Shown here in pieces: positions 5,442 through 55,672 of a DNA stretch of 64,000 nucleotides. The translations under genes and the position numbers were made by a program. The notes beneath the pieces are model-generated. The model did no database searches. It was not told the DNA's origin and saw only the letters and a program-made list of their open reading frames with translations. Numbering within the stretch: the first letter of the stretch is position 1; each line of letters opens with the position of its first letter. Source of the stretch: a virus (taxonomy: Duplodnaviria > Heunggongvirae > Uroviricota > Caudoviricetes); IMG/VR virus record IMGVR_UViG_3300021400_005610. One strand, given 5' to 3'.

Positions 5442-5623
5442 TTGTTTCGATTGAATATCTGTGTCAGAAGTGTTTCAGTATTAGAATCTAATACTGAGTG
5501 ACACAGCTTTTTCGAAAAAACATTTTCGGAAAAGAGTTGATAATTGTGATTAATTATGGTATTCTGTTAGAAACAATTGATTCATCTGCGTCAATTTTTT
5601 TTAAGGAAAAAGGGGGTTATGAA

Positions 5624-6640: not shown

Positions 6641-6704
6641 GATAACAGCGCATATTTTGTGATTTATGTCGATTTGAAAGTGAATATTGAAAGGAGCTTT
6701 GGTT

Positions 6705-37442: not shown

Positions 37443-37581
37443 TCTAAGTTGAATAGTTTGACACAATTGTTGAAAGTACGGAATTGTTGAGAGTACGGCG
37501 ACGGTGATCATAAATTGATGGTTGCCGCCGCCGTTTCTAATATGCTTTGTATTATTTTATGGGAAGGAGGCGCTGACAAAT

Positions 37582-42563: not shown

Positions 42564-42592
42564 TTGACAATGCTTTGGGGAAAGAGTATAAT
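42564..42592 (+). promoter_or_regulatory. sigma70-like promoter (TTGACA-17-TATAAT) driving the leader of the tRNA array
   Basis: Consensus hexamers at 42564-42569 and 42587-42592. Divergent from the minus-strand promoter described above. Confidence 0.65.
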
Positions 42593-43006: not shown

Positions 43007-43081
43007 TGGTTCGTAGCTCAATGGCAGAGCAATCGGCTGTTAACCGATAGGTTGGGGGTTCGAGTCCCCCCGTTCCAGCCA
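43007..43081 (+). tRNA. tRNA-Asn (GTT)
   Basis: Cloverleaf with D-stem gctc/gagc and anticodon loop ctGTTaa. T-arm ggggg-ttcgagt-ccccc and an encoded CCA. The acceptor stem has two central U-U mismatches. Confidence 0.5.
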
Positions 43082-43101
43082 TGGTTCATAGGAGGTACGA
43101 T

Positions 43102-43368
43102 ATGAAATTACGACATGTGTGCGAAGTCTGTGGGAAAGAGGAAGTATTGACTCCTGATGAAGCATTTGAAAAAGGATGGGATTATCCTCCGAGAATGGGG
43201 ATGTTTGGAGTGTTATCGCCAAGAACCTGTGGTGATTGTGCGATGGTCGATACGATCTGGTGGAAATTGATGTATCAGAATGTGAAATCTGAAGATTTAT
43301 CTGATAAAGATAAGTTGACTTTGTCTCGTATCTTGAATGAACCAGCAAGTATTTTAGTTGATGAGTGA
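43102..43368 (+). CDS. Zn-ribbon protein (CxxC...CxxC), hypothetical
   Basis: AGGAGG RBS precedes ATG 43102. Contains CEVCGK...CGDC. Confidence 0.5.
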   Translation: MKLRHVCEVCGKEEVLTPDEAFEKGWDYPPRMGMFGVLSPRTCGDCAMVDTIWWKLMYQNVKSEDLSDKDKLTLSRILNEPASILVDE

Positions 43369-43376
43369 ATGGGTAT

Positions 43377-43453
43377 GGACTGGAAGCTAACTCGGTAGAA
43401 GCGCTTGGTTGAAGCCCAAGAGGAGCGGGTTCGACTCCTTGCCTAGTCCACCA
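43377..43453 (+). tRNA. aberrant tRNA-like element (Phe-like GAA anticodon arm), possible pseudo-tRNA
   Basis: Ends in CCA. The anticodon arm is cttgg-ttGAAgc-ccaag. The T-like arm aggag-cgggttcga-ctcct has a 9-nt loop. The acceptor ggactgg/cc(t)agtcc needs a 1-nt bulge and there is no variable loop. Confidence 0.3.
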
Positions 43454-43467
43454 TAGTTTGAAAGGAG

Positions 43468-43977
43468 ATGTTTAATTTGGGCGAAATGTTTATGAGGCCA
43501 AATGGTCAAGCAGTATTGCTGCAGGACATTGCGAAAATCGCAGCGGAATATATGGCGCGTAGTCCTATGTCACATTATGAGGTGACGGTAGGTACCGATA
43601 GCCAGAATTTCGATAAGACAAAGATGGTTGAGGTTATCGCATTACACCGTGTTGGTAGCGGTGGCATCTTCTTCTATCGTGTGAACTATGTGCGTCGTAT
43701 TGATAATCTGCGTCAGAAGATTCAAGAAGAAACGCAACGTAGTTTGTCCGTGGCGGACGGTTTGTTTAGTGAGATTGAAACGCAGTTAACTCACTTTGGT
43801 GTGGACATCAATGATATGGATATTCATTTCCAGATTCATTGCGACGTCGGCTACAACGGAAGCACGAAGGCTCTGATCCAAGAAATTGTTGGATGGGTTC
43901 AAGCAATGGGCTATGATTGTGCAATTAAGCCAAACAGCTATGCTGCAAGCGGAATTGCCAATAAATATAGCAAATAA
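43468..43977 (+). CDS. DUF458/YkuK-like RNase-H-fold protein (tentative)
   Basis: AAAGGAG RBS. TVGTDSQNF...MVEVIALHRVGSGGIFFY resembles the YkuK family. The family assignment is from memory and not verified. Confidence 0.45.
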   Translation: MFNLGEMFMRPNGQAVLLQDIAKIAAEYMARSPMSHYEVTVGTDSQNFDKTKMVEVIALHRVGSGGIFFYRVNYVRRIDNLRQKIQEETQRSLSVADGLFSEIETQLTHFGVDINDMDIHFQIHCDVGYNGSTKALIQEIVGWVQAMGYDCAIKPNSYAASGIANKYSK

Positions 43978-43981
43978 AAGG

Positions 43982-44014
43982 TTTCGGAGCGGAGATTTCG
44001 CTCCCGTTCCGAAA
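43982..44014 (+). terminator. stem-loop terminator
   Basis: tttcggagcgg agattt cgctcccg ttccgaaa is a nested inverted repeat. Confidence 0.45.
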
Positions 44015-44020
44015 TCATAT

Positions 44021-44098
44021 GTTGGCGGTAGCTCAATTGGTGAGAGCATCGGGTTGTGGCCCCGAAGGTTGCGAGTTCGAGTCTCGTCCGTCACCCCA
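44021..44098 (+). tRNA. tRNA-His (GTG)
   Basis: Anticodon loop ttGTGgc. An extra 5' G(-1) pairs with discriminator C, the His hallmark. T-arm gcgag-ttcgagt-ctcgt and an encoded CCA. Confidence 0.75.
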
Positions 44099-44136
44099 TG
44101 ATGGCGTAAGTCATCAAAAGAAAGGACTTTATTGGA

Positions 44137-44733
44137 ATGTTTTCAGAGAAAAATAGAAAGTTGGTCGAAGCATACCAGAATGGGTATCATCCGACAGGAC
44201 AAAATTATGAATATTATGTTGCTTGTGAATTTGAAGCATTGGGCTATAAGACCTATGTTACTCGTGCAACAGGGGATTTTGGTACGGATGTGATTGTGGA
44301 GATCAATCGCTATTTTAAGATCATTTTTCAATGTAAGTATTATAGTTCAAAGATTGGAAATCATGCTGTACAGGAGATATGTGCAGCAAAAGAGTATTAC
44401 AAGGCACAATTGTGTGTTGTAATTACAAATAACACATATACAGAAGCAGCTATGCAACTTGCTGAAGCAAATCATATACTTTTGATTCAAAATTTTGACG
44501 TAGGCGATAATATTGAGTCGGTATGTGAAGTGTTAGGGTTAATCCCTGAAAAGTACGTTACGTTAAACAAATTGAAGCTAAATGATGCATCTGCGGAGCG
44601 AGATTATCTTGTGAAACAAGTGCATGCTTTGGAAGAGGAGTTATTTGATTATCGAGTGGATCCGTGGTGGAATCCTGTTTCGATGTGGGATGACGAACCT
44701 GAGATTGAAGAGTCTGATGAAAATAGTGGTTAA
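44137..44733 (+). CDS. Mrr-cat (restriction endonuclease-like) domain protein
   Basis: GDFGTDVIVE...FQCKYY is the D-(E/Q)xK PD-(D/E)xK-like core typical of the Mrr N-terminal catalytic domain. Confidence 0.55.
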   Translation: MFSEKNRKLVEAYQNGYHPTGQNYEYYVACEFEALGYKTYVTRATGDFGTDVIVEINRYFKIIFQCKYYSSKIGNHAVQEICAAKEYYKAQLCVVITNNTYTEAAMQLAEANHILLIQNFDVGDNIESVCEVLGLIPEKYVTLNKLKLNDASAERDYLVKQVHALEEELFDYRVDPWWNPVSMWDDEPEIEESDENSG

Positions 44734-44734
44734 T

Positions 44735-44809
44735 GCGTGTGTCGTCTAACGGTGAGGATATCAGCCTTCCAAGCTGAGGGTACGGGTTCAATTCCCGTTA
44801 CACGCTCCA
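44735..44809 (+). tRNA. tRNA-Gly (TCC)
   Basis: Acceptor gcgtgtg/tacacgc, anticodon loop ctTCCaa, T-arm acggg-ttcaatt-cccgt, CCA. Confidence 0.8.
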
Positions 44810-44810
44810 T

Positions 44811-44886
44811 GGCAGAGTTAAGGAAGTGGTTGCCTTGCAGGTCTCATAAACCTGATATACGGGTTCGAATCCCGTCTCTGCTACCA
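44811..44886 (+). tRNA. tRNA-Met (CAT) elongator (or Ile-lysidine)
   Basis: Anticodon loop ctCATaa, T-arm acggg-ttcgaat-cccgt, CCA. Confidence 0.75.
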
Positions 44887-44889
44887 TAT

Positions 44890-44965
44890 GCTCTTGTAGC
44901 GCAACAGGTAGCGCGGCTGATTTGTAATCAGTAGGTTGCAGGTTCGATTCCTGTCGGGAGCTCCA
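44890..44965 (+). tRNA. tRNA-Thr (TGT)
   Basis: D-arm gcgc-aacaggta-gcgc, anticodon loop ttTGTaa, T-arm gcagg-ttcgatt-cctgt, CCA. Confidence 0.8.
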
Positions 44966-45053
44966 GCTGTTGTGGCGGAATGGAAGACGCGATAGGCTCA
45001 AACCCTATTGTCATGGAAATGGCGTGTGAGTTCAAATCTCACCAACAGTACCA
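44966..45053 (+). tRNA. tRNA-Leu (CAA), type II
   Basis: Long variable arm. Anticodon arm atagg-ctCAAac-cctat, T-arm gtgag-ttcaaat-ctcac, CCA. Confidence 0.75.
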
Positions 45054-45141
45054 GCCGATGTGGTGGAATCTGGTAGACACCCCAGACTTAAAATCTGGTG
45101 TTCGTATGAGCGTACGGGTTCGAGTCCCGTCATCGGTACCA
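45054..45141 (+). tRNA. tRNA-Leu (TAA), type II
   Basis: Anticodon arm ccaga-ctTAAaa-tctgg, long variable arm, T-arm cggg-ttcgagt-cccg, CCA. Confidence 0.75.
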
Positions 45142-45162
45142 CGAACATTAGAGAAAGGATGT

Positions 45163-45305
45163 ATGAAAAGATGTGCAAGCAGCTATCTATGGATGATATA
45201 GGATATTTTCTCTATATGCAGTCGCAAGAAGAGAAAGATGAAGATTTAGAAAATACAGAAGATGAAACATGCATCAGTGACGGAATGGAAGACGTGACAG
45301 GCTAA
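45163..45305 (+). CDS. small acidic ORF (47 aa), doubtful
   Basis: GAAAGGA RBS plus an ATG between two tRNAs. The longer track ORF 45060-45305 overlaps a tRNA and is rejected. Confidence 0.25.
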
Positions 45306-45358
45306 GAACCTGTTGTCCTTAACGGGGCGTGTGAGTTCGAATCTCACCTGATGTACCA
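45271..45358 (+). tRNA. tRNA-Leu with apparent AAG anticodon, type II
   Basis: Same architecture as the Leu(CAA) gene. The anticodon arm acagg-ctAAGaa-cctgt reads AAG at 34-36, which is unusual for bacteria. T-arm gtgag-ttcgaat-ctcac, CCA. Confidence 0.6.
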
Positions 45359-45444
45359 GGGTCGGTGAGCGGAATTGGTAACGCAGCGGGCTGTAACCCC
45401 GTGGCCTTTTGGCATTCCTGGTTCAAGTCCAGGTCGACTCACCA
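45359..45444 (+). tRNA. tRNA-Tyr (GTA), type II
   Basis: Acceptor gggtcgg/tcgactc with two G-U pairs. Anticodon loop ctGTAac, long variable arm, T-arm cctgg-ttcaagt-ccagg, CCA. Confidence 0.75.
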
Positions 45445-45450
45445 ATATTT

Positions 45451-45538
45451 GCACGAATGGCGGAACGGAAGACGCGCTGGTTTCAGAGGCCAGTGTCACG
45501 AAAGTGGCGTGAGAGTTCAAATCTCTCTTTGTGCACCA
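45451..45538 (+). tRNA. tRNA-Leu (CAG), type II
   Basis: Anticodon arm ctggt-ttCAGag-gccag, long variable arm, T-arm gagag-ttcaaat-ctctc, CCA. Confidence 0.75.
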
Positions 45539-45630
45539 GGGTTGGTGTGGCGAATTGGTGAAGCCAGCGGACTGTAAATCCGTCACCCACAGGGTAAACA
45601 TTGGAGGTCCGAGTCCTCCCCAGCCCACCA
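45539..45630 (+). tRNA. tRNA-Tyr (GTA) second copy, type II
   Basis: Acceptor gggttgg/ccagccc, anticodon loop ctGTAaa, long variable arm with a ccc-aca-ggg hairpin, T-arm ggagg-tccgagt-cctcc, CCA. Confidence 0.7.
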
Positions 45631-45633
45631 TAT

Positions 45634-45710
45634 GGCTCTGAGGGAAAACAGGTTGATCCGCCTGCCTGTCACGCAGGAGATAGCGGGTTCGAGCCCCGCC
45701 AGAGTCGCCA
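45634..45710 (+). tRNA. tRNA-Asp (GTC)
   Basis: Acceptor ggctctg/cagagtc, anticodon arm cctgc-ctGTCac-gcagg, T-arm gcggg-ttcgagc-cccgc, CCA. Confidence 0.75.
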
Positions 45711-45711
45711 T

Positions 45712-45802
45712 GACTGTGTGGTGTAATGGAAGTCGACTTAAATATATAGCACACCAAGTGGTCTCTTAGGAGGTTCAGGTTCGATTCCTGACACAGTCGC
45801 CA
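45712..45802 (+). tRNA. aberrant ~91 nt tRNA-like element (acceptor and T-arm intact, no canonical anticodon arm found)
   Basis: Acceptor gactgtg/cacagtc, T-arm tcagg-ttcgatt-cctga and CCA are all clean. The internal ~60 nt contains a ggtgt...acacc helix and I could not locate a 5-7-5 anticodon stem-loop. Confidence 0.3.
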
Positions 45803-45862
45803 AGTCCATAGGGCAATAGCAGAGGTATCGTGACAATCACTATTGCCGACGATCTATGGACT
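45803..45862 (+). ncRNA. 60-nt perfect extended hairpin (not a tRNA)
   Basis: agtccatag-ggcaatag ... ctattgcc-gacgat-ctatggact forms 9 bp + 8 bp helices around a 20 nt loop, wedged between two tRNAs. Confidence 0.35.
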
Positions 45863-45867
45863 AATCT

Positions 45868-45943
45868 GGGGTTGTAGCTCAACTGGGAGAGCGCCTGCCT
45901 TGCAAGCAGGAGGTAGAGGGTTCGACACCCTTCAGCTCCACCA
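45868..45943 (+). tRNA. tRNA-Ala (TGC)
   Basis: A G3-U70 pair (Ala identity) is present. Anticodon arm cctgc-ctTGCaa-gcagg, T-arm gaggg-ttcgaca-ccctt, CCA. Confidence 0.85.
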
Positions 45944-46032
45944 GGTTAGGAAAGCCGTTAAGAAACGAGATATCTGTTTCGATGTTACTGATATGGACGG
46001 ACAAGTGAGTTGTGATGGTTCGGCTCACATAT

Positions 46033-46108
46033 GGATTGATAGCTCAGATGGTAGAGCAGGGGACTGAAAATCCCCGTGTCGCTGGTTCAATTCCAGCTCA
46101 ATCCACCA
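46033..46108 (+). tRNA. tRNA-Phe (GAA)
   Basis: Acceptor ggattga/tcaatcc, D-arm gctc-agatggta-gagc, anticodon arm gggga-ctGAAaa-tcccc, T-arm gctgg-ttcaatt-ccagc, CCA. Confidence 0.85.
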
Positions 46109-46185
46109 GGACCGTTAGGTCAATTGGTTAGACCACTCGGCTCATAACCGAATAGTTCTGGGTTCGAGTCCCAGGCGGTCCACCA
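46109..46185 (+). tRNA. tRNA-Met (CAT) second copy (elongator, or Ile2-lysidine)
   Basis: Anticodon loop ctCATaa. It lacks the initiator GGG/CCC anticodon-stem signature. T-arm ctggg-ttcgagt-cccag, CCA. Confidence 0.7.
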
Positions 46186-46190
46186 TCGAT

Positions 46191-46267
46191 GTCCCATTAG
46201 CTCAGTGGACAAGAGTAGTACTCTCCTAAAGTACAAGTCGATGGTTCGAATCCATCATGGGACGCCA
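46191..46267 (+). tRNA. tRNA-Arg (CCT)
   Basis: Acceptor gtcccat/atgggac, anticodon arm gtact-ctCCTaa-agtac, T-arm gatgg-ttcgaat-ccatc, CCA. Confidence 0.8.
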
Positions 46268-46276
46268 AATAAATAT

Positions 46277-46354
46277 GGTGCCATAGTCGAACTGGTTGAA
46301 GACACTGGCCTTTCAAGCCAGAGAGTCGGGGTTCAAGTCCCCGTGGCATCACCA
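46277..46354 (+). tRNA. tRNA-Glu (TTC)
   Basis: Acceptor ggtgcca/tggcatc, anticodon arm ctggc-ctTTCaa-gccag, T-arm cgggg-ttcaagt-ccccg, CCA. Confidence 0.8.
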
Positions 46355-46357
46355 TAT

Positions 46358-46433
46358 GCGGTAGTAGCGCAATTGGTAGCGCACCACCTTGCCAAGGTGG
46401 ATGTTGCGGGTTCAAGCCCCGTCTACCGCTCCA
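46358..46433 (+). tRNA. tRNA-Gly (GCC)
   Basis: Acceptor gcggtag/ctaccgc, anticodon arm ccacc-ttGCCaa-ggtgg, T-arm gcggg-ttcaagc-cccgt, CCA. Confidence 0.85.
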
Positions 46434-46511
46434 GGTCCCTTCTTCTAATTGGTTTAGGAAGTTGGCCTCTCAAGCCAAAAATGCTGAGTTCGAGTCTCGC
46501 AGGGATCACCA
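46434..46511 (+). tRNA. tRNA-Glu (CTC)
   Basis: Acceptor ggtccct/agggatc, anticodon arm ttggc-ctCTCaa-gccaa. The T-arm has one mismatch. CCA. A C34 Glu isoacceptor is uncommon in low-GC bacteria. Confidence 0.65.
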
Positions 46512-46588
46512 GTGCCCGTAACTCAATGGAATAGAGTAACGGTCTTCTAAACCGTAAGTTATGGGTTCGAATCCCATCGGGCATGCCA
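46512..46588 (+). tRNA. tRNA-Arg (TCT)
   Basis: Anticodon arm acggt-ctTCTaa-accgt, T-arm atggg-ttcgaat-cccat, CCA. Confidence 0.8.
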
Positions 46589-46622
46589 TGGGTTTGTATA
46601 AATCAAAGAAAGGATGTGAAAA

Positions 46623-46859
46623 ATGGTATCTGTAAGGGTGTTATTGAATTCATTGGAAAAGGTTAAGTCTTTTGTTTCGATTGTCGGTAAGTTTGATGCA
46701 GATATGGAAATTGTTTCTGGTAAGTATATTGTTGATGCAAAGTCTATTATGGGTTTATTCAGTATGAATTTGTTAGAGCCAATGACGTTGGTTATTAAAG
46801 CAGACAATCCTGCTTGTGTGAATGTATTGGATGATATTAGACCATATGTTTATGGTTGA
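46623..46859 (+). CDS. HPr/Crh-like phosphocarrier-fold protein lacking the His15 active site
   Basis: 78 aa with a GAAAGGA RBS. GKYIVDAKSIMGLFSMNL matches the HPr Ser46 region (KSIMG), but the His15 position is replaced (LNSLEK), as in Crh. Confidence 0.55.
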   Translation: MVSVRVLLNSLEKVKSFVSIVGKFDADMEIVSGKYIVDAKSIMGLFSMNLLEPMTLVIKADNPACVNVLDDIRPYVYG

Positions 46860-46862
46860 TAT

Positions 46863-46940
46863 GCGCTTGTAGCTTAATTGGTAGAGCAGCGGACTCTTAA
46901 TCCGAAGGTTTTGGGGGTTCAAGTCCCTTCAGGCGCACCA
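46863..46940 (+). tRNA. tRNA-Lys (CTT)
   Basis: Acceptor gcgcttg/caggcgc, D-arm gctt-aattggta-gagc, anticodon arm gcgga-ctCTTaa-tccga, T-arm ggggg-ttcaagt-ccctt, CCA. Confidence 0.75.
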
Positions 46941-46988
46941 TCGAGTCCTACTATTGTCATTAGGCTGTTGAGCCGTAAGGAGGACATT

Positions 46989-47585
46989 ATGAGTTATTAC
47001 TATAATTATTATGTCGGATATAAGAAAGATGGAAAGATTTATCCGTGGGGTCCTTACAATGCGAATGGTAAGTTAGAACCAATGGTCAGTCGTTCCAGAT
47101 CTTTTGCTTCGGATTTACATGAGGAGTTTGATACTGTATCTGATAAGGAAGTTTCAGAAGAACTTCGTAAAGAATTTGAGTATGAGGATTGGAATAAGGT
47201 CAAGCATCTTGATGTAAAATATCTTTCCGAAAAGGATTTACCGACAGGAAGTTATATTAGGACAGGTTATTTTTTGATTAAAGATGTCCAAGCATATGAG
47301 CATGATGAGTATGGTAATTTCGAAGGTTTTTATGATGTCCTTAGTCCTGAAGTTTATGCGGCAAAATTACAGCATGAAATGATGTTTGGTAAGAATCAAC
47401 CTGAGAAAGACGATGAAGGCAATGAATATACAGAGCCAAATGCATCGGATTATATGTACTATGCGTATCCTAATTATGAGACGAAAGAGTACGAATCGTT
47501 CATTCTTCGGCAGTTAATTGAGGCTTTGCGTGATTATCGTTTGGGTAATGATATTGAGTATGTCGTTTTAGAAACGGAAGGTTGA
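46989..47585 (+). CDS. hypothetical protein (Tyr-rich N-terminus)
   Basis: Strong RBS GTAAGGAGG. The track ORF start at 46878 overlaps the tRNA and is rejected in favour of ATG 46989. Confidence 0.55.
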   Translation: MSYYYNYYVGYKKDGKIYPWGPYNANGKLEPMVSRSRSFASDLHEEFDTVSDKEVSEELRKEFEYEDWNKVKHLDVKYLSEKDLPTGSYIRTGYFLIKDVQAYEHDEYGNFEGFYDVLSPEVYAAKLQHEMMFGKNQPEKDDEGNEYTEPNASDYMYYAYPNYETKEYESFILRQLIEALRDYRLGNDIEYVVLETEG

Positions 47586-47596
47586 TCCTTTCGTAT

Positions 47597-47670
47597 CGAG
47601 ATGGTGGTGTAATGGTAGCACGCATCGTTCGGGACGATGAGGCGACGTTCAAATCGTACCATTTCGACCA
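47597..47670 (+). tRNA. tRNA-Pro (CGG)
   Basis: Acceptor cgagatg/catttcg, anticodon arm catcg-ttCGGga-cgatg with G37. The T-arm is weak at 3 bp. CCA. Confidence 0.6.
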
Positions 47671-47696
47671 ATTTCTTATGTAAAGGGGTTAACGGT

Positions 47697-47966
47697 ATGT
47701 TCCATAACATTGTGATTGGCAGACCTTTGGTTGAGCCGTGGAAGTTAATTTCAAGTTCTAAAGAAGAGTTTGAAAGATTTGATAAACGCGATACGTTATT
47801 TACCAATGAGAGGTTTCTTCCAGCTGTGCTTGTAGAAGCAAATGTCGTATCTTCTCGTGGAGAAGTTCGAAGAAATAAACCAGAATTATGTAAGGAACTG
47901 AATAATTTGGATTGTTTGTGGGTAAAATGGGGGAAACAGAAGATTTATGTGATTGTTGGTGAGTAA
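47697..47966 (+). CDS. hypothetical protein
   Basis: ATG 47697 is preceded by AAAGGGG. The track ORF start at 47637 overlaps the tRNA. Confidence 0.45.
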   Translation: MFHNIVIGRPLVEPWKLISSSKEEFERFDKRDTLFTNERFLPAVLVEANVVSSRGEVRRNKPELCKELNNLDCLWVKWGKQKIYVIVGE

Positions 47967-47969
47967 TTT

Positions 47970-48045
47970 GCGTCTGTAGCTTAGGCGGTAGAGCAGCGGA
48001 CTTTTAATCCGAAGGTCGGGAGTTCAAGTCTCCCCAGACGCACCA
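47970..48045 (+). tRNA. tRNA-Lys (TTT)
   Basis: Perfect acceptor gcgtctg/cagacgc, anticodon arm gcgga-ctTTTaa-tccga, T-arm gggag-ttcaagt-ctccc, CCA. Confidence 0.85.
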
Positions 48046-48340
48046 GTGTGTTGGTAGCCAAGCAATAAAAGGCAGTAAGACAATAGCGGTTCCATTAAGC
48101 AGAACACTTGGAGAACGAACTCCAGAGCGCATGGCGGCTAAGAGAGACTCTGTATAGTAAAATGACCGAGTGCTGAAGCATTTATATTATGCAGAGGGAG
48201 ACCCAATCGACAAGGTGAATGAGGTCGAGCCTACGCAGTTTCACCAAATAACGTTGTGTCACTCTGTATGGAACGTCGTGTGATTGATGTCGAAACCTGC
48301 GTCGTGGATGCAGAAGTCGACTACTGCACACCCAACACAC
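48046..48340 (+). ncRNA. candidate ~295-nt structured non-coding RNA between tRNA-Lys and tRNA-Pro
   Basis: No credible ORF on either strand. A terminal 9-bp helix gtgtgttgg(48046)/ccaacacac(48332) closes the element. Internal helices are tggag-aacgaa-ctcca, tcgac-13nt-gtcga, a long-range acgcagtttc/gaaac-c-tgcgt pairing (48234/48292), and tgcag-10nt-ctgca. Confidence 0.4.
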
Positions 48341-48345
48341 ATTAT

Positions 48346-48421
48346 CTGGGTGTAGTGCAATTGGTAGCATGCGTGATTTGGGATCACGTGGTTGTGGGTT
48401 CAAATCCCGCCACTCAGACCA
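48346..48421 (+). tRNA. tRNA-Pro (TGG)
   Basis: Acceptor ctgggtg/cactcag, anticodon arm cgtga-ttTGGga-tcacg with G37, T-arm gtggg-ttcaaat-cccgc, CCA. Confidence 0.8.
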
Positions 48422-48498
48422 AATTTGTGTATTGTGTTATCTCCGTGGCGGATTTATAATTTTTGTAGAAATAAATCCAGAAAGGATGGTAAGTTGAT

Positions 48499-48972
48499 AT
48501 GGCAAATGAAATCAAAAACGGAAGATTGCATGTTGATGGGAAGAGAATTCCGTTGTCTATGGATGAAGCTCGTTCTATGAAGATGAATGCCTTTACAGGA
48601 CGACAGGTATCTGAAGAAGCATCGGTTGAAATTCCTGAAGATAAGAAGGGTCAATATGCTTTTACACAGGATATTCTGCAGAAGAAGATGAAGCCTGATA
48701 AGGAATTGTCGTATACGGAAGATGAATATAAAGCTGCTGAAGATGTGTATGGCAGAATGCGTACAGCACAATCCATGGCTATGGATAGTTTGATGCCATC
48801 TGATGAAGAGTTTAAGGCTTTAAATACCGATGCGTTTACGGCTGTTACGAGGGATGCTGCTGAGAGAGAAGCTGAAGCAAAGCGTCAGGAGCGTTTGAAG
48901 AAAGCCGAAGAATTGTCGTCACGTGTTAGTGAACCGACAGAATCTCCACTGGCAGAGTACGGAATTTATTAA
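48499..48972 (+). CDS. hypothetical protein
   Basis: 157 aa with an AAAGGATGG RBS. Charged and probably helical. Confidence 0.5.
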   Translation: MANEIKNGRLHVDGKRIPLSMDEARSMKMNAFTGRQVSEEASVEIPEDKKGQYAFTQDILQKKMKPDKELSYTEDEYKAAEDVYGRMRTAQSMAMDSLMPSDEEFKALNTDAFTAVTRDAAEREAEAKRQERLKKAEELSSRVSEPTESPLAEYGIY

Positions 48973-49220
48973 AACTTTTTTCTCGAAATCTATTGATTTC
49001 TGAGTAAAAGTATGGTATTATATAGTTGCGTCGGAAAGACGAGAAGAAATGAGAAAGGATGTCACGAAAATGATGAATTTCACTATGAGTCAAAGTTCAC
49101 AGGTCATTATTCGCTGGTCGCAGGTATGCTCCCAGTTTATTTGTCGTGGACGGGTAACTCATTCCTAATGTGAGATCATCTGATTTTCTTTGTGATATTT
49201 GAGAAAAAGGGGAATCACAA

Positions 49221-49270
49221 CACCGTTCGCGATAGGATAGGATTATCCGAAGCGAGCGGTGTTTTTTATT
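49221..49270 (+). terminator. rho-independent terminator
   Basis: caccgttcgc ...21 nt... gcgagcggtg followed by ttttttatt. Confidence 0.6.
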
Positions 49271-49277
49271 AAAAAAT

Positions 49278-49366
49278 GGTAGTGTCGCTCAATGGTGGAG
49301 CAACTGCCTTGAAAGCAGCCAGTCGAGGGCCTCGACCTGCAGGTTCGAATCCTGCCACTACCGCCA
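49278..49366 (+). tRNA. tRNA-Ser (TGA), type II
   Basis: Perfect acceptor ggtagtg/cactacc. Anticodon loop ctTGAaa. Variable-arm hairpin gtcgagg-gcc-tcgac. T-arm gcagg-ttcgaat-cctgc, CCA. Confidence 0.8.
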
Positions 49367-49461
49367 GGTGATATAAACCTAATTGGTAAGGTCCCTGTCT
49401 CGAAAACAGGTAGTAGCCCTGTTAAAGGGGTGTTTCGGTTCAAGTCCGAATATCACCGCCA
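49367..49461 (+). tRNA. tRNA-Ser (CGA), type II
   Basis: Acceptor ggtgata/tatcacc, anticodon arm cctgt-ctCGAaa-acagg, long variable arm, T-arm ttcgg-ttcaagt-ccgaa, CCA. Confidence 0.8.
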
Positions 49462-49466
49462 CAAAT

Positions 49467-49560
49467 GGAGTCGTAAGCCTAATTGGTAAGGCGCCGATTT
49501 GGAAGGTCGGTAGTAATCCTGCTGAGGGGTGTGTTGGTTCGAGTCCAATCGACTCCGCCA
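49467..49560 (+). tRNA. tRNA-Ser (GGA), type II
   Basis: Acceptor ggagtcg/cgactcc, anticodon arm ccgat-ttGGAag-gtcgg, long variable arm, T-arm gttgg-ttcgagt-ccaat, CCA. Confidence 0.8.
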
Positions 49561-49580
49561 TTTGAAAGGATGTGTGAAGT

Positions 49581-49871
49581 TTGACAGAACAAAGAGTATT
49601 GGAATTTATTCATAGACGCTTTCCTCAGGATTGTAACTGGAAGAATGGAAATTGTTATTTCTTTGCAGTGATTCTAAAAAGTAGATTTCCAGAAGGAATT
49701 ATTCTTTACGATGTGATTGACGGTCATTTTGTGACACACATCGATGGACGAAATTATGACTGGTCGGGTGTTGTTTCTGATGAAGGAAAGCATTATTATG
49801 TTGAGTGGGATTATTTCGATGAGTATGATTCTAATCAGAAGAAATCTGTGATTGACGGATGTATTCTTTGA
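49581..49871 (+). CDS. hypothetical protein (TTG start)
   Basis: GAAAGGA RBS 10 nt upstream of TTG 49581. The only upstream in-frame ATG is immediately followed by a stop. Confidence 0.45.
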   Translation: MTEQRVLEFIHRRFPQDCNWKNGNCYFFAVILKSRFPEGIILYDVIDGHFVTHIDGRNYDWSGVVSDEGKHYYVEWDYFDEYDSNQKKSVIDGCIL

Positions 49872-49876
49872 TAAAT

Positions 49877-49951
49877 AGGGGTATGGTGTTAACGGTAGCA
49901 TATCGGTCTCCAAAACCGCAGGTGAGGGTTCGAGTCCTTCTGCCCCTGCCA
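49877..49951 (+). tRNA. tRNA-Trp (CCA)
   Basis: Acceptor aggggta/tgcccct, anticodon loop ctCCAaa on a 4 bp stem, T-arm gaggg-ttcgagt-ccttc, CCA. Confidence 0.7.
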
Positions 49952-50093
49952 CGTTCAGAGTCATGAACTGAACGATATCTTAACGATTCGTAAGTGACGT
50001 AATCAGCTGTAAAGACGTGCCACCTGAAGCATTCGATATGTACGGTGCTTTGGGTGAGATCCGACTATGAATCGGCGAAGACGAATCGGATAT

Positions 50094-50170
50094 AGGGTGT
50101 TAGCTCAGCTGGGACGAGCATTTGTCTTACAAGCAAAAGGTCGTGGGTTCGATCCCCACACACCCTACCA
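50094..50170 (+). tRNA. tRNA-Val (TAC)
   Basis: D-arm gctc-agctgggac-gagc, anticodon arm tttgt-ctTACaa-gcaaa, T-arm gtggg-ttcgatc-cccac, CCA. Confidence 0.8.
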
Positions 50171-50245
50171 TGGGATATGGCGTAATTGGTAACGCATCGG
50201 ACTCTGACTCCGAAGTTACAGGTTCAAGTCCTGTTGTCCCAGCCA
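50171..50245 (+). tRNA. tRNA-Gln (CTG)
   Basis: A U1-A72 pair as in bacterial tRNA-Gln. Anticodon arm tcgga-ctCTGac-tccga, T-arm acagg-ttcaagt-cctgt, CCA. Confidence 0.8.
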
Positions 50246-50320
50246 TGGGTTATAGCGTAAGTGGTAGCGCACGGGACTTTGACTCCCGACGTACAGGTTC
50301 GAGCCCTGTTAGCCCAGCCA
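50246..50320 (+). tRNA. tRNA-Gln (TTG)
   Basis: Acceptor tgggtta/tagccca, anticodon arm cggga-ctTTGac-tcccg, T-arm acagg-ttcgagc-cctgt, CCA. Confidence 0.8.
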
Positions 50321-50414
50321 GGAGACGTAGCATAGTCGGTCGAATGCACCCGCCTGCTAAGCGGGAGAACGGTGAATAATCGTTCCGAGGGTTCGAATCC
50401 CTCCGTCTCCGCCA
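50321..50414 (+). tRNA. tRNA-Ser (GCT), type II
   Basis: Perfect acceptor ggagacg/cgtctcc, anticodon arm cccgc-ctGCTaa-gcggg, long variable arm, T-arm gaggg-ttcgaat-ccctc, CCA. Confidence 0.85.
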
Positions 50415-50453
50415 TGTTGTATTGATTGGCTTTTATTATGAAAGGTTGTGATT

Positions 50454-50960
50454 ATGAGTATAGAAACTGCAGAAGCGTTATTTAAGAAATATGATGGTCA
50501 TATTAATCTTTTACGGAAAAACGAACCGTCATCGTATGCAATCATAAGCGCTGCGTGCTTGAGTGATGATTGTTACGAAGAGTGGCGTAAAGAAATTTTG
50601 GACGGCATAACGCAAATGGGTGTTTCTGATATTTTCAATATTACATGGTTTATTCGTTTTGTGTCTGTATTTAAAGAAATGAATCGGAATGAAACATATC
50701 GGTTTGATTGTTTGGTTGATTTATTGAGAGCATATGTGAAGAGCAATGATTCTTGTAAGATCGAGATATTGCGTAAGATGGTTGGTAATGTTCGTTTCGG
50801 TTATCGAGATGGCTTGCTTTATTGGGTGTTACGAAATACTTCTGGATTTAGTGTCGTAGAGGCTATTATGCAGCAGAATTATGTAAATGTAGATTCTAAT
50901 AATCCTTCTTTAGTTGATCTGAGTGAGCAATATAAGAAGGCTGTATATAAATTTGTGTGA
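50454..50960 (+). CDS. hypothetical protein
   Basis: ATG 50454 has a GAAAGG RBS. The track start GTG 50448 is also possible. Confidence 0.5.
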   Translation: MSIETAEALFKKYDGHINLLRKNEPSSYAIISAACLSDDCYEEWRKEILDGITQMGVSDIFNITWFIRFVSVFKEMNRNETYRFDCLVDLLRAYVKSNDSCKIEILRKMVGNVRFGYRDGLLYWVLRNTSGFSVVEAIMQQNYVNVDSNNPSLVDLSEQYKKAVYKFV

Positions 50961-50965
50961 TATTT

Positions 50966-51042
50966 GACTGCGTACCCAAGTGGCTTAAGGGGGCAGACTG
51001 CAAATCTGTTATTCGTTGGTTCGAATCCAACCGTAGTCTCCA
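50966..51042 (+). tRNA. tRNA-Cys (GCA)
   Basis: Acceptor gactgcg/cgtagtc, anticodon arm gcaga-ctGCAaa-tctgt, T-arm gttgg-ttcgaat-ccaac, CCA. Confidence 0.75.
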
Positions 51043-51119
51043 TCTGGAGTAGCTCAGACGGTTAGAGCGTCCGCCTGATAAGCGGGAGGTCGGCAGTTCA
51101 AGTCTGCCCTTCAGAACCA
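51043..51119 (+). tRNA. tRNA-Ile (GAT)
   Basis: D-arm gctc-agacggtta-gagc, anticodon arm tccgc-ctGATaa-gcggg, T-arm ggcag-ttcaagt-ctgcc, CCA. U1-A72 is unusual. Confidence 0.75.
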
Positions 51120-51195
51120 GTCCCCATAGGCTAATGGAATAGACCCTTCGGCTACGAACCGAACAGTGGAGGTTCGAATCCTCCTGGGGATGCCA
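51120..51195 (+). tRNA. tRNA-Arg (ACG)
   Basis: Acceptor gtcccca/tggggat, anticodon arm ttcgg-ctACGaa-ccgaa, T-arm ggagg-ttcgaat-cctcc, CCA. Confidence 0.8.
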
Positions 51196-51261: not shown

Positions 51262-51912
51262 ATGAAAGAAAATTTAACTGAGTTGGTGTTTATTCTGGAT
51301 AGAAGCGGTTCTATGAGTGCTTTGACAGATGACACAATTGGTGGGTTCAATTCTTTGATTGAGTCCCAGAAAGCAGAAGAGGGCGAAGCGTTCGTCACAA
51401 CTGTATTGTTTGACGATAAGTACGAATTATTGCATGATCATGTGAATATCAAGGATGTTCTGCCTTTGACACGGAAAGAGTATTTCGCAAGAGGTATGAC
51501 AGCATTGTTAGATGCGATTGGTCGTACCATCAATACGATTGGTGAGAGACTTGCAAAGACGCCTGAAGAGGAACGTCCGAGTCGTGTTGTAATTGCCATC
51601 ACGACAGATGGCTTTGAAAATGCAAGTAAGGAATTTACGAAGAAACAGATTAAGGACATGATTGAGCATCAGCAGTCCAAGTATTCTTGGGTGTTTATGT
51701 TCCTTGGTGCAAATATGGACGCTGTTTCTGAGGCTGAGTCTCTTGGTATTCGTGGAACGATGGCAAGAACGTATACGAATTCGAGCAGAGGTGTGGAAAC
51801 TGTTTACACAGCAATGTCTGCTTCGATGAGCTTGGCTCGTGAGGCTAAGTCTTCTGTATGTTTGGATGATTTGGCTGCAGAAATGAGTTCTGCATTGGAT
51901 GAAGTCGAATAA
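51262..51912 (+). CDS. von Willebrand factor type A (vWA) domain protein
   Basis: MIDAS motif DRSGSMS near the N-terminus (ILDRSGSMSALTDD), then conserved T and D positions. GAAAGGAG RBS. Confidence 0.8.
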   Translation: MKENLTELVFILDRSGSMSALTDDTIGGFNSLIESQKAEEGEAFVTTVLFDDKYELLHDHVNIKDVLPLTRKEYFARGMTALLDAIGRTINTIGERLAKTPEEERPSRVVIAITTDGFENASKEFTKKQIKDMIEHQQSKYSWVFMFLGANMDAVSEAESLGIRGTMARTYTNSSRGVETVYTAMSASMSLAREAKSSVCLDDLAAEMSSALDEVE

Positions 51913-53059: not shown

Positions 53060-53110
53060 ATTTGTAGCTTAAATGGGCTTTAGTTCGCATTTAGGAAAGG
53101 ATTGAATGGA

Positions 53111-55672
53111 ATGTCGGAACACATTGAAGGAATTATTACTCGTTTAGTAAAAGGTACTCCGAAAGCAAACCGTTGGTTTGCAGGTAGTGTTCGTTTATCC
53201 GATGGAAGTTACGTTCGTGTTGCTGGTACAGCTAACGTGCGTGTAAATATAGGAATGACCATTGAGTTTAATGGTGATTTGGTTAGCACCAATTATGGTG
53301 ATCAGTATGAGCCTGTTTCAGGTGAATTGATTCGTCGTCGTTTAGTGACGAAATTTGAAATAATTTCGTTTTTGACGAGTCCTGTTTTTCCTGGTATTGG
53401 TGAGAAATCAGCAAAGCTGATTTATGAGAAATATAAAGACCAAACGATGCCTATGCTGGAACAGCATATGGATCAAGTTATTGCAGATTGTAAGCTGAAT
53501 AAGTCTCAAGCTGCTGGTTTGGTCAAAGGTATTTCTTCTACTTCTGGTTTGGCAAAGCTGAAGTATACATTTCCGCATATGAAGCAGTATCTTTTGGATA
53601 GAATTTTAGATACTGTCGATGTACGTCATTTGGATGATGTTGTCGATAGGATTTGTAGAAATCCATATACTGCGTTATATGGTGATACTGGTTTCAATGT
53701 GTCATTGTATGATACAGATGAGATTGCCCTTTTGGATGTTGGTTTTGATGAATATGCGAAAGAACGTATTGATTTGGTGGTGTATGCTGCTTTGTCAGAA
53801 TTTATGGGTGACAAGAACGCTACTTACGTGAAGATTGATTATGATCATAATTTTGCGGAATATACTTGGTTTTTTAACAAGTATGTTCGTGCGGTTAGAC
53901 TTTTCAAGCCGTTGCCGATATATTGGGATGGCATGTTGTTTGATGCCAACTGTTTAGCTATGAAGTTTCAACAGTATTGGGATGATATTCATAGTTTTTC
54001 GTCCTGTGTTTGTTCGGATAGACGAATCAACCCTGATGGAACAGGGGAGTTTGATTTGTATCAGAAGAAAATTTATTTGGCAGAAAAGTCTTTAGTGGAA
54101 CAAATCAATCGTTCTTACAATGATACGATGAATACGGCTTATATGAAGAGAACGGTTAAGTTCGTTCAATGGTATAAGGCGATGAAAGCGGAAGGTGTTT
54201 ACACAAACACGAATCCTGATCAAGATCAAGTTGCTGCTGTAAGGCAAGTATTTGGTTCTTGTATGTCATTTTTGTCAGGCGGACCTGGTCGTGGTAAGAC
54301 CGCAACCATTGGTTTTTTGATTAATGCGTGGAAACAGTCTGTTGGTAATCATATTCTGTTGCTTGCACCTACAGGTAAGGCTGTGAATAAGGTGAAGGAT
54401 GCAACGAAGTACGTGAATGCTGAGACCATTCGTCGTTTCATTTTAATCAATAAATTGAAACGTACTAAAGATTCAGATTATATCTTGGATATGTATGGCG
54501 ATAAGATGCCTATTGGTCTGAATACATTAGTTGTTATTGATGAAACGTCCATGTTGGACTTTGTGGAAGCAAGCGATCTGTTGTCTGTTATTGACGGTTG
54601 TACGATTGTGTTTTCTGGTGATAAGGATCAGTTATCTCCGATTAGTCCTGGTTCATTTCTTTCGGAAATGTTGGATAGTCATAAGATTAATCTGTCTCTT
54701 TTGACACATAACTATCGTACTGATGTCCCTGAGTTGGGCGAGAATGCAGATAAGATATTAGCTGGTTGTAAGGTTACGGATTTGACTTTGACAGATAATT
54801 TTAGTATTATTCCATCAAAGGAACGTGCGGATGATGGCGGTTTGTCGCCAGCTGAAAAGTACATTCTGAATGAATATGCTGATCGCATGGCAGAAGGTGC
54901 TGATTTTTCGGACATTCTTGTTGTTGCGCCATTTACGAATAGTAAGTATGGTTTGTCAGCAGGCCATTTGAATTATGTCTTACAGGCAAGATTTAATCCA
55001 CAAGATGATAAGGCGTATTATAAGTATGGCCAGGATGATTACGGACGGTATATCGATAAGAGAGGTAAGGAATGCCCTGTCTTAGATAAGTCTGGTAATC
55101 GTGTGCGTCTTGGTGATCGTGTTATTAACAATCGTAATAACATGGATGCGTCTTGGCATAGTTTTAAGAATGATAATGTTGGTTACGAATCGTCTTTGGA
55201 CGATCCAATAGATAGTGCGATTAACACGGGTGTGTTTAATGGCGATATGGGTACCATCGAGCGTTATTACGAAGCAACGGATTCTGATGGTCCGAGGATT
55301 TTGGTCTGTTTGGATCAGCTTTCTCCGTATGGAAAGCGTCGTTATGTGTGGGTTGATTGCGAGTCTGATTTTCATGGTGTATGGCATTTAGCCGATTGGA
55401 CTTTAGGTTATGCACTTAGCGTACACAAAGCACAGGGTAGTGAGGCTCGCCATGTAATTGTGGCTTTATCTGAAGAAGGTTATAAAGCCGTCAGTTGGCG
55501 TGTTATGAATGGTTCAGCTCCATTCTTGACGAGAAACATGTTGTATACAGCTGTGACTCGTGCAAAAGAATCAGTACGGATTATCGGTAGTTTAGTTGCG
55601 TTGCAAGCTTGTTTAGATATGCCGTATTACTACTGTAATGTTCGTTTGGCTGAGGCGTTAGATAAAGCATAA
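53111..55672 (+). CDS. RecD2-like superfamily-1 DNA helicase
   Basis: Walker A SGGPGRGKTATIG and Walker B VVIDETSMLD. The C-terminal VHKAQGSEARHVIV is a RecD/TraA-like motif. The N-terminal ~300 aa extension includes an HhH-like segment. Confidence 0.85.
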   Translation: MSEHIEGIITRLVKGTPKANRWFAGSVRLSDGSYVRVAGTANVRVNIGMTIEFNGDLVSTNYGDQYEPVSGELIRRRLVTKFEIISFLTSPVFPGIGEKSAKLIYEKYKDQTMPMLEQHMDQVIADCKLNKSQAAGLVKGISSTSGLAKLKYTFPHMKQYLLDRILDTVDVRHLDDVVDRICRNPYTALYGDTGFNVSLYDTDEIALLDVGFDEYAKERIDLVVYAALSEFMGDKNATYVKIDYDHNFAEYTWFFNKYVRAVRLFKPLPIYWDGMLFDANCLAMKFQQYWDDIHSFSSCVCSDRRINPDGTGEFDLYQKKIYLAEKSLVEQINRSYNDTMNTAYMKRTVKFVQWYKAMKAEGVYTNTNPDQDQVAAVRQVFGSCMSFLSGGPGRGKTATIGFLINAWKQSVGNHILLLAPTGKAVNKVKDATKYVNAETIRRFILINKLKRTKDSDYILDMYGDKMPIGLNTLVVIDETSMLDFVEASDLLSVIDGCTIVFSGDKDQLSPISPGSFLSEMLDSHKINLSLLTHNYRTDVPELGENADKILAGCKVTDLTLTDNFSIIPSKERADDGGLSPAEKYILNEYADRMAEGADFSDILVVAPFTNSKYGLSAGHLNYVLQARFNPQDDKAYYKYGQDDYGRYIDKRGKECPVLDKSGNRVRLGDRVINNRNNMDASWHSFKNDNVGYESSLDDPIDSAINTGVFNGDMGTIERYYEATDSDGPRILVCLDQLSPYGKRRYVWVDCESDFHGVWHLADWTLGYALSVHKAQGSEARHVIVALSEEGYKAVSWRVMNGSAPFLTRNMLYTAVTRAKESVRIIGSLVALQACLDMPYYYCNVRLAEALDKA

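Follow-up and report, generated by a model that had tools for sequence, protein, structure and literature searches.

RNAC and RNAD of phage T4 are still unexplained decades after their discovery, and the ROOL and GOLLD RNAs have cage-like structures and no known function. The two T4 RNAs, of 139 and 119 nt, are not transfer RNAs (tRNAs); they occupy tRNA slots on the tRNA strand and lie 1-6 nt from tRNA-Arg and from each other. Their functions are still not known (PMC3014915, PMC9697503), and the same holds for ROOL and GOLLD, which are found in the tRNA islands of phages, prophages or plasmids (PMC5737381, PMC12286853). The YrlA Y RNAs of bacteria and phages mimic tRNA, and at least one of them is an RNase P substrate (PMC4201824). 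Here we analyze an element at 48046-48340 on the + strand of a 64,000-nt stretch of DNA (the whole of which is referred to as the window; IMG/VR record IMGVR_UViG_3300021400_005610). Like T4 RNAC and RNAD, it fills a slot in a same-strand tRNA cluster a few nucleotides from the tRNAs (0 and 5 nt in the window), and the T4 RNAs are its best analogy by position and presumably by processing. The element belongs to a real structured RNA family, a conclusion of which we are close to certain. Overall, we lean, if only slightly, towards reading it as an uncatalogued, tRNA-shaped noncoding RNA of mobile-element tRNA arrays that would be co-transcribed with the tRNAs, excised, and act as a mimic that does not decode.

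The family adds a third kind of RNA to the tRNA-island niche, beside T4 RNAC/RNAD and ROOL/GOLLD, and one that is compact and shows strong covariation. If it proves to be a tRNA mimic active in the conflict over translation, its size of about 105 nt would make it a small and tractable model for the presence of non-tRNA stable RNAs in such islands. With more than 100 natural variants, modular insertions, and a minimal form of just 104-107 nt (e.g., L058:5141-5247), it lends itself to structural, probing, processing, and comparative study. The family also shows that real genes within tRNA arrays escape annotation by tRNA-gene finders and Rfam, and a covariance model is now available for annotating rumen and gut mobile elements. 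Neither Rfam 15 nor the literature that could be searched yielded an earlier description of the family, an absence that does not prove that nobody has seen it.

A structured RNA family among the tRNA genes

The tRNA array that holds the element contains 36 tRNA genes (43007-51195), all on the + strand (ARAGORN, Rfam), and the gap between tRNA-Lys(ttt) and tRNA-Pro(tgg) runs from 48046 to 48345 (300 nt). A preliminary description of the window had proposed that this gap holds a structured RNA unit of about 295 nt, has no credible open reading frame (ORF), and is closed by a perfect 9-bp terminal helix. The last two points stand. The largest + strand ORF fully within the gap has 37 aa (48170-48283), the remaining ORFs overlap a tRNA or are on the - strand, and tblastx against related loci gave no pseudogene signal. 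The helix (GTGTGTTGG at 48046-48054 with CCAACACAC at 48332-48340) is present, and it is the conserved, covarying helix P1 of the family; when the gap was shuffled 400,000 times, a perfect helix of this length between its first and last 16 nt appeared in 75 cases. The structured RNA was also borne out, but not its size: what the family conserves is a tRNA-shaped core, roughly 105-140 nt long. The window copy reaches 295 nt because a lineage-specific insert of about 120 nt and a 35-nt hairpin in the loop of helix P6 expand this core.

The 300-nt gap had no match among GenBank phages (blastn). Two exact 18-mers from the insert of the window copy had none in IMG/VR, and blastn and nhmmer against about 520 kb of related loci returned only four near-identical copies; these last searches failed because the insert is restricted to this lineage. 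A compact member of the family likewise had no blastn match among phages and PLSDB plasmids. Protein-guided look-ups identified three other contigs that bear the element at 96.7-98% identity and in the same Lys-element-Pro order, but these genomes are about 97% identical overall and therefore say little about selection. Among the four close copies, divergence is 2.0-3.3% in the element, 1.3-1.8% in tRNAs, 3.5-4.1% in intergenic DNA, and 5.5-6.4% at third codon positions. Relatives reached through the flanking 89/109-aa and 157-aa ORFs have shuffled arrays in which the element is absent at that position; three IMG/VR contigs found through the 89-aa ORF (L001-L003) hold members elsewhere in their arrays (L214, L060, and L062).

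A covariance model built from the window and the three near-identical copies (R1) matched a 201-nt relative, L037:3745-3945 (32 bits, E about 1e-6 to 1e-7). Compared with the window, this sequence has three P1 pairs and one P2 pair changed on both sides, and several unpaired stretches are identical. The 20 bases common to the two provided a 5' search motif, CAAGNANTAAAAN{0,1}GNCNNNAAGACAAT. A scan of IMG/VR with this motif gave 26 stretches, and R1 confirmed 26 of 26 as full-length (one cut by a contig end). JGI metagenomes gave 108, with 76 of the 80 examined confirmed by R1, and species-representative genomes gave 11 loci, three of them confirmed. These three are on contigs of metagenome-assembled genomes (MAGs) labelled Bacteroidales, Methanobrevibacter (goat ileum), and Bacillus, and are probably binned mobile-element contigs. 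When an independent 3' motif (GCGYGTGATTGAAACTGCACRC) was used for a second scan of IMG/VR, it gave 24 new loci, all of which match covariance model R2 and retain the 5' motifs. In total, the family comprises 107 distinct sequences from IMG/VR, JGI metagenomes, and the three MAGs. Lengths among the first 86 members range from 104 to 295 nt (median 174), the window copy being the longest of all. The family sits in large mobile elements of uncultivated microbes, apparently from gut or rumen, and its hosts look like jumbo-phage-like contigs and, for the window, a conjugative-plasmid-like replicon.

The preliminary description had called for a homology search and a check for compensatory changes, and it is this evidence that carries the claim. 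When 15 compact members were aligned with plain MAFFT, RNAalifold predicted 32 pairs, 22 of which have compensatory changes. In a model-guided alignment of 87 distinct sequences, 94.0% of cells pair, versus 26-41% when the partners are slid by 1-3 columns, and compensatory (double) changes are present in 28 of the 32 pairs. The covariation score is 0.555 versus 0.04-0.09 in controls, and none of 500 shuffles reaches the observed values. As several helices contain G-U pairs (e.g., UG 11, GU 12), the transcribed strand is fixed.

The fold shared by the family begins with P1, which is most often 7-8 bp long. All eight of its modelled pairs covary, with 4-6 pair types each, and its sequence varies freely among members yet stays paired. 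The dinucleotide that follows (J1/2) is UA in 97 of 106 parsed members and UG in nine. P2 is a 3-bp stem (G-N-C / G-N-C) in which the outer G-C and C-G pairs are near-invariant and the middle pair covaries (AU 38, GC 29, CG 15); its loop, AAGCAUUAAAA (AAG[C/U/A]A[U/C/A]UAAAA), is conserved also in members found by the 3' pattern. The J2/3 loop, AAGANAAUA (AAGA[C/A/G]AAU[A/G]), is present in all 107 members (107/107), and a 2-bp closure of this loop is weakly supported (73-79% paired, 4 pair types). All four modelled family pairs of P3 covary. The P3-P4-P4b-P5 arm has conserved internal loops (GGAACAC / GUGAAAUCC) and then a hexaloop, and its P4/P4b and P5 helices covary. Bases 2-4 of the P5 loop may form a pseudoknot with the downstream linker, as they are 82% paired with double changes in 3 of 3 pairs in the 15-sequence seed, a small sample. 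The arm as a whole is variable, from a few tens to about 180 nt, with several alternative modules. The J3/6 linker ((G/A)AUGC) reads GAUGC or AAUGC in 73 of about 100 parsed members, and ACGUC only in the window lineage. P6 consists of 5 bp plus an A.G juxtaposition (G.A in eight members) with the loop UUGAAACU, which appears as AUUGAAACUG in 64 members and GUUGAAACUA in eight; four of its five pairs covary, 98.5% of cells are paired, and it runs straight into the P1 3' strand with 0 nt between. About 20% of members have a hairpin inserted mid P6 loop, at the same point, and two have one in the P2 loop.

Two further contacts were considered and rejected. A kissing pair between CAAU (J2/3 loop) and AUUG (P6 loop) is unsupported, as the C varies to A/G and the P6 loop is unchanged, and a contact between GCAU (P2 loop) and AUGC (J3/6) gave no mutual-information signal. 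A small ORF behind the AGGAG of J2/3 was also discarded: AGGAG is not universal, and the candidate start frames, read by eye, differ between members.

Across the family, tRNAs lie within 3 kb of the element at 71 of 86 loci, with 474 on the same strand and 0 on the opposite one; the available flanks of 15 loci contain no tRNA. At these 86 loci, 14 elements start <=5 nt past a tRNA, 13 end <=12 nt before one, and five are closely flanked on both sides. The spacers in the window (0 nt upstream, 5 nt downstream) are the same as those between tRNAs in that array. CCA occurs within 5 nt after P1 in one of 106 members, the trailers being A/U-rich, while it is encoded in 36 of 36 window tRNAs and in the tRNAs of most other arrays. 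There is one copy of the element per locus, and the window has no paralogue of it.

Comparison with tRNA and other described RNAs

The preliminary description had found no fit to a known RNA family, and the scans agree. Rfam 15 gave no match in the gap at the gathering threshold, nor at E<=10 on 47900-48500, and no match to the element at E<=1 in 20 homologue loci covering all central-domain types. At these same thresholds, there was no Rfam match to RNase P RNA, 6S RNA, signal recognition particle RNA, group I/II introns, known ribozymes, or riboswitches.

The core of the family probably has a tRNA-like architecture. In its cloverleaf-like layout, read from the alignment, no linker separates the terminal helix of 7-8 bp from the 3' arm of 5 bp on which it is stacked. 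As in tRNA, UA stands at the place of U8-A9, a 3-bp D-like stem opens with AAG (A14, R15), and a 4-nt linker resembling the variable loop ends in C. In the proposed mimicry, an acceptor-like P1 would stack on a T-like P6, the 3-bp stem would take the part of the D stem, and UAGNCAAG would sit at the place of tRNA U8 A9 G10...A14 R15. Unlike tRNA, the core has no anticodon arm, a variable pseudoknotted P3-P5 arm being present instead, and an extra conserved 9-nt loop follows the D-like arm.

The analogy with T4 is one of position. A canonical T-arm (CCGGGUUCGAAUCCCGG) stands at the end of T4 RNAC, and CACCA at that of RNAD, whereas in the new family the P6 loop (10 nt) is non-canonical and CCA is lacking. 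As for homology to rnaC/rnaD, R2 gave no match at E<=1 in T4 68000-76000. The ROOL/GOLLD-like context suggested in the preliminary description was substantiated by a related replicon, which has a true ROOL (RF03087, 280 bits) in its own array region (L041:3224-3810). The ROOL/GOLLD models have no match in the window, and the same search detects the L041 ROOL. However, ROOL (about 580 nt) and GOLLD (>800 nt) have other folds and form multimeric cages, while the core of the new family is about 105-140 nt.

Transfer-messenger RNA (tmRNA) is similar in that an acceptor/T-like module is combined with a pseudoknotted RNA in place of the anticodon side. Unlike tmRNA, the family has no G3:U70 pair, CCA, conserved tag frame, or canonical T-loop, and it is far smaller (down to 104 nt). 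At the modelled P1 pair taken as the third acceptor pair (columns 5/340), GU occurs in 2 of 87 rows. Neither Rfam (RF00023 and relatives) nor ARAGORN gave a tmRNA match for the element. Related contigs do carry tmRNA in these surroundings: a 285-nt tmRNA gene with the tag DNTQYALAA lies inside the tRNA array of one (L013:17938-18225), and an 82-nt tmRNA-model match (48 bits), possibly a reduced form with the tRNA-like domain only, lies just upstream of the ROOL in another (L041:2997-3078).

The YrlA RNAs differ in other ways. They are circularly permuted relative to tRNA, have their ends on the anticodon side, have canonical modified D/T loops, and are encoded beside Ro60 (rsr). In contrast, the ends of the new family are at the acceptor-like helix, and there is no rsr neighbour and no RF02553 match. 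The sole match to the YrlA model (36.6 bits, L094:3060-3124) covers two adjacent tRNAs and not the element.

A putative tRNA mimic and its alternatives

In the model that we favour, the RNA of the element would be co-transcribed with the tRNAs of the array. A promoter-like site upstream of the array (Table 1) is a candidate start of a polycistronic transcript containing the element, and there is no terminator-like site between 47970 and 48421. The tRNA-like layout and tRNA-like spacing make release by RNase P and 3' enzymes the most economical model, and such release by tRNA-processing enzymes is reasonably likely. RNase P would cut at the 5' side of the element and at the next tRNA (tRNA-Pro), limiting the 3' end of the precursor, and RNase Z or RNase E plus exonucleases would mature the 3' side. 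Since it has no anticodon arm, CCA, or canonical T-loop, the RNA would not be a decoder, and a non-decoding mimic is favoured. The mature RNA might occupy or recruit a tRNA-binding factor to the benefit of the mobile element; candidates include enzymes that process or modify tRNA, translation factors, the ribosome, and host defence proteins directed at tRNA. The conserved AAGANAAUA loop and the pseudoknotted arm would then be the functional surface of the mimic. This mode of action is tentative, and we would sooner doubt it than accept it at present. If true, it would be a new way for mobile elements to manipulate tRNA biology. A more specific version, rather unlikely though conceivable, would make these RNAs a new functional class, mimics of tRNA that take part in translation conflict by blocking, diverting, or recruiting a host factor or defence nuclease or by acting on the ribosome.

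The thermodynamics lends this reading no support. The preliminary description had seen the profile of a folded RNA in the gap; covariation bears out a structured RNA, but the folding energy is unremarkable against the coding background. The + strand gap has a minimum free energy of -95.4 kcal/mol (z = -3.78, with none of 200 shuffles equally stable) and the - strand a fold z of -1.75, while ninety 300-nt coding windows from the same + strand have a mean z of -1.87 (standard deviation 1.33) and seven of the 90 reach <= -3.77. As coding windows in this replicon fold better than their own shuffles, z-scores are poor evidence for an RNA gene here, and we dropped this line of evidence, the element lying within the coding background. 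Thermodynamics alone is insufficient for the claim, the significance of which comes solely from comparative evidence. Several points weigh against this reading. The constraint in the window lineage is statistically weak, with just 6-10 substitutions, and the conservation of the 5' motif is partly fixed by the search pattern, so that independent support for it comes only from the 24 loci found by the 3' pattern. Within the insert, a helix (48127-48133 / 48230-48236) that is a perfect 7 bp in three close relatives is broken at two pairs in the window, which differs at three insert positions.

The resemblance to tRNA is also incomplete. GG is missing from the D-like loop, a UUCRANY T-loop and CCA are likewise missing, and the 10-nt P6 loop (A-UUGAAAC-UG) is not a canonical T-loop and tolerates a mid-loop hairpin. 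The Rfam tRNA model (RF00005, gathering 29 bits) has no match in 48046-48345 at E<=10 and none on the elements of 20 homologues at E<=1, and ARAGORN calls only the flanking tRNAs and not the element. For about 60% of members, no tRNA is directly adjacent, and processing of neighbouring tRNAs therefore cannot define both ends everywhere. The family also has no conserved protein neighbour, the best cluster being present in 9 of 107 loci. Finally, the transcription, RNA ends, and stability of the element are all deduced from sequence.

Adjacency to tRNAs also bears on an alternative that we consider improbable, namely, a cis-acting processing or insulator module that organises maturation of the polycistronic tRNA precursor and is then degraded. 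Such a module might offer RNase P, RNase E, or RNase III a site at which to enter or from which to measure, or guard against misfolding of neighbouring tRNAs. The presence of the element in arrays on the tRNA strand, often abutting tRNAs, the single copy per locus, and a terminal helix that brings the 3' end of one tRNA near the 5' end of the next would all suit such a role. However, a cis-acting module would not require that about 40 unpaired nucleotides stay near-invariant, along with a pseudoknot and a junction of five elements, across very divergent arrays, and the same arrays pack tRNAs 0-5 nt apart without one. The roughly 60% of members that are not tRNA-adjacent, and the 15 of 86 loci without a tRNA in the available flanks, also argue against it.

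We likewise give little credence to the RNA being a subunit or cofactor of a quality-control or translation-rescue particle, Y-RNA-like or tmRNA-like, that docks a Ro60-like protein, SmpB/EF-Tu, or the ribosome. No match to the element was obtained with the Rfam tmRNA and YrlA models or with ARAGORN, and the RNA lacks a G3:U70 pair (GU in 2/87), CCA, a conserved tag ORF, and a canonical T-loop. What speaks for such a particle is the tRNA-like core, in which, as in tmRNA, a pseudoknotted domain stands in for the anticodon arm, together with the tmRNA (L013) and the 82-nt tmRNA-model match (L041) in related arrays. The tRNA mimicry of the YrlA Y RNAs, at least one of which is cut by RNase P (PMC4201824), also favours it. 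In addition, a protein of about 519 aa (DUF2828+DUF7788) with a vWA/MIDAS-like DVSGS motif is encoded 1-2.5 kb from the RNA at 4 of 107 loci (L099, L161, L152, and L097). This association is rare, though, any relation of the protein to Ro60/TROVE is conjectural, and the 64-kb window showed no gene of this kind.

Less probable still is a ribozyme or a ligand- or RNA-sensing RNA in which the junction and loops form an active site or pocket and the resemblance to tRNA is incidental. Many invariant unpaired nucleotides at a multi-helix junction, the pseudoknot, A-rich internal loops (GGAACAC / GUGAAAUCC), and a variable periphery are what such an RNA might show, but there is no match to a known ribozyme or riboswitch family, no consistent downstream gene, and no sequence feature that marks a cleavage site, and mimicry accounts better for the way in which the RNA takes the positions of tRNAs. 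Non-functional DNA (the decayed remains of a tRNA or ORF, ordinary spacer, or a miniature inverted-repeat transposable element with 9-bp terminal inverted repeats) could account for a fold z-score within the replicon background, a four-copy divergence not significantly below the intergenic rate, and 9-bp ends readable as inverted repeats, but tblastx shows no ORF remnant, and 107 distinct homologues with compensatory changes in 28/32 pairs, including G-U pairs possible on one strand only, effectively exclude spacer, tRNA pseudogene, and transposable element alike. The transposable element was also ruled out by the single copy per locus, the lack of flanking direct repeats, and a terminal helix that varies in sequence while remaining paired.

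The window copy, its replicon and related loci

The features of the window copy are listed in Table 1. Their mapping relies on R1 and on motif reading, as R2 misplaces the 3' end of the window copy owing to the large insert. In one close relative (L034), a change of C48093 to U leaves a G-U pair in P3. At the position of the insert, members elsewhere in the family mostly have just 10-40 nt. The hairpin in the insert shows a compensatory change in another relative (L035), with U48151-A48193 replaced by C-G and the adjacent C48150-G48194 by U-G. An insert motif, GCGCAUnnCGGCUAAGAGAG, is found again in L140, and this part of the insert is therefore a reusable module. The preliminary description had also reported a 10-bp long-range pairing of 48234 with 48292. 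We found it as 9 bp at 48233-48241 / 48294-48302 with 89% complementarity, but it is not a feature of the family: it is a putative pairing that links two lineage-specific insertions and competes with the hairpin inserted in P6.

Table 1. Positions of the parts of the element and of neighbouring features in the window
Feature	Position	Strand	Evidence or remark
Promoter-like site TTGACA-17-TATAAT, 12/12	42564..42592	+	Consensus match only; upstream of the tRNA array
tRNA-Lys(UUU), CCA encoded	47970..48045	+	70.7 bits; abuts the element, 0-nt spacer
P1 5' strand GUGUGUUGG, acceptor-stem-like terminal helix	48046..48054	+	Perfect 9 bp with 48332-48340
J1/2 dinucleotide UA, matching tRNA U8-A9	48055..48056	+	Conserved in family
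P2 hairpin, D-arm-like, GCC / AAGCAAUAAAA / GGC	48057..48073	+	Covariation, conserved loop
J2/3	48074..48088	+	Conserved 9-nt loop AAGACAAUA at 48077-48085
Possible 2-bp closure of the AAGACAAUA loop	48075-48076 with 48086-48087	+	Weakly supported
P3 5' strand GUUCCAU	48089..48095	+	Perfect 7 bp with 48268-48274
P4 (GCAGA) and P4b (ACAC) 5' strands	48099..48107	+	Window form of family GGAACAC; pair with 48263-48267 and 48256-48259
P5 hairpin UUGGAG-AACGAA-CUCCAG	48108..48125	+	P5 covaries in family
Proposed pseudoknot	Loop ACG 48115-48117 with CGU 48252-48254 (inside AAUAACGUU)	+	Window assignment read from sequence
Insertion domain, about 120 nt	48126..48245	+	Absent from most members; has hairpin 48148-48196
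P4b 3' strand GUGU, CAC bulge (family: AAA), P4 3' strand UCUGU	48256..48267	+	Fold, covariation
P3 3' strand AUGGAAC	48268..48274	+	Helix match, covariation
J3/6 linker GUC, comparable to tRNA variable loop	48275..48277	+	Family consensus (G/A)AUGC
P6, T-arm-like, GUGUG 48278-48282 / CACAC 48327-48331	48278..48331	+	Loop A-UUGA...ACU-G
35-nt hairpin inserted in P6 loop	48288-48322	+	Window copy
P1 3' strand CCAACACAC	48332..48340	+	Pairs with P1 5' strand; P6 abuts, 0 nt
Trailer AUUAU, no CCA	48341..48345	+	5-nt spacer ahead of tRNA-Pro
tRNA-Pro(UGG)	48346..48421	+	64.9 bits

Judged by its gene content, the window replicon is more like a conjugative megaplasmid or phage-plasmid than a phage. 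It encodes ParM/ALP-like (8-1033), MscS (1136-1909), and ParA (2045-2827) proteins, a D5-like primase-helicase (3683-5389), a NikA-like protein (5498-5974), a topoisomerase (6687-8960), a DUF3945 protein (9006-9458), a MobL relaxase (29311-31410), a VirD4/TraG coupling protein (37522-41313), a RecD-like helicase (53102-55672), and a full-length SecA (60635-63064). Ten large ORFs of the window gave no PHROG match. The long ORFs are all on the + strand, the GC skew is about +0.2 across the window, and the best plasmid relatives of the replicon are Gram-positive.

The tRNA array also holds small protein genes (43468-43977, 44137-44733, 46623-46859, and 49581-49871), the products being an RNaseH-like protein (PF04308), one with a Mrr-type restriction endonuclease domain, one that is HPr-like, and one that is YunG-like. 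A second tRNA-Tyr(gta) of 92 nt (45539-45630, ARAGORN), with a partial Rfam tRNA match of 29.3 bits, may be a degenerate or unusual copy. Directly after the array, a 216-aa protein (51262-51912) matches phrog_7371 (E 4.5e-61) and, weakly, VWA_2; relatives of it occur in 24 IMG/VR contigs, mostly without nearby tRNAs.

Other members of the family are near genes typical of jumbo phages, including those for the Pol III alpha subunit, NrdD, PolA, Lon, GyrA, and a gp4-like primase-helicase. The DUF2828/DUF7788 protein has no sequence relative in the PDB and no useful literature, and a link between it and Ro60/TROVE-type RNA-binding proteins is only a guess. A 742-aa protein (L047:2452-4680) has a weak match to PF05183 (eukaryotic-type RNA-dependent RNA polymerase, E 9e-9), and its being a phage RNA polymerase is likewise a guess. 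A weak match to the type-P1 twister ribozyme (L102:1075-1129; 25 bits, E 0.11, far under gathering), about 150 nt downstream of a member, is probably due to chance. Many related arrays contain an amber suppressor tRNA with a CUA anticodon, called "Pyl" by ARAGORN (e.g., L049:486-558, L054:313-389, and L058:1467-1540; further CUA-anticodon tRNAs are at L062:4363-4438, L066:6534-6608, and L069:4966-5055). The window has none, and their presence suggests TAG recoding in the elements that carry them. Matches to the tRNA model of 128-138 nt (L039:14773-14900, L039:16396-16533, and L121:105-237) may be tRNAs with long insertions or introns.

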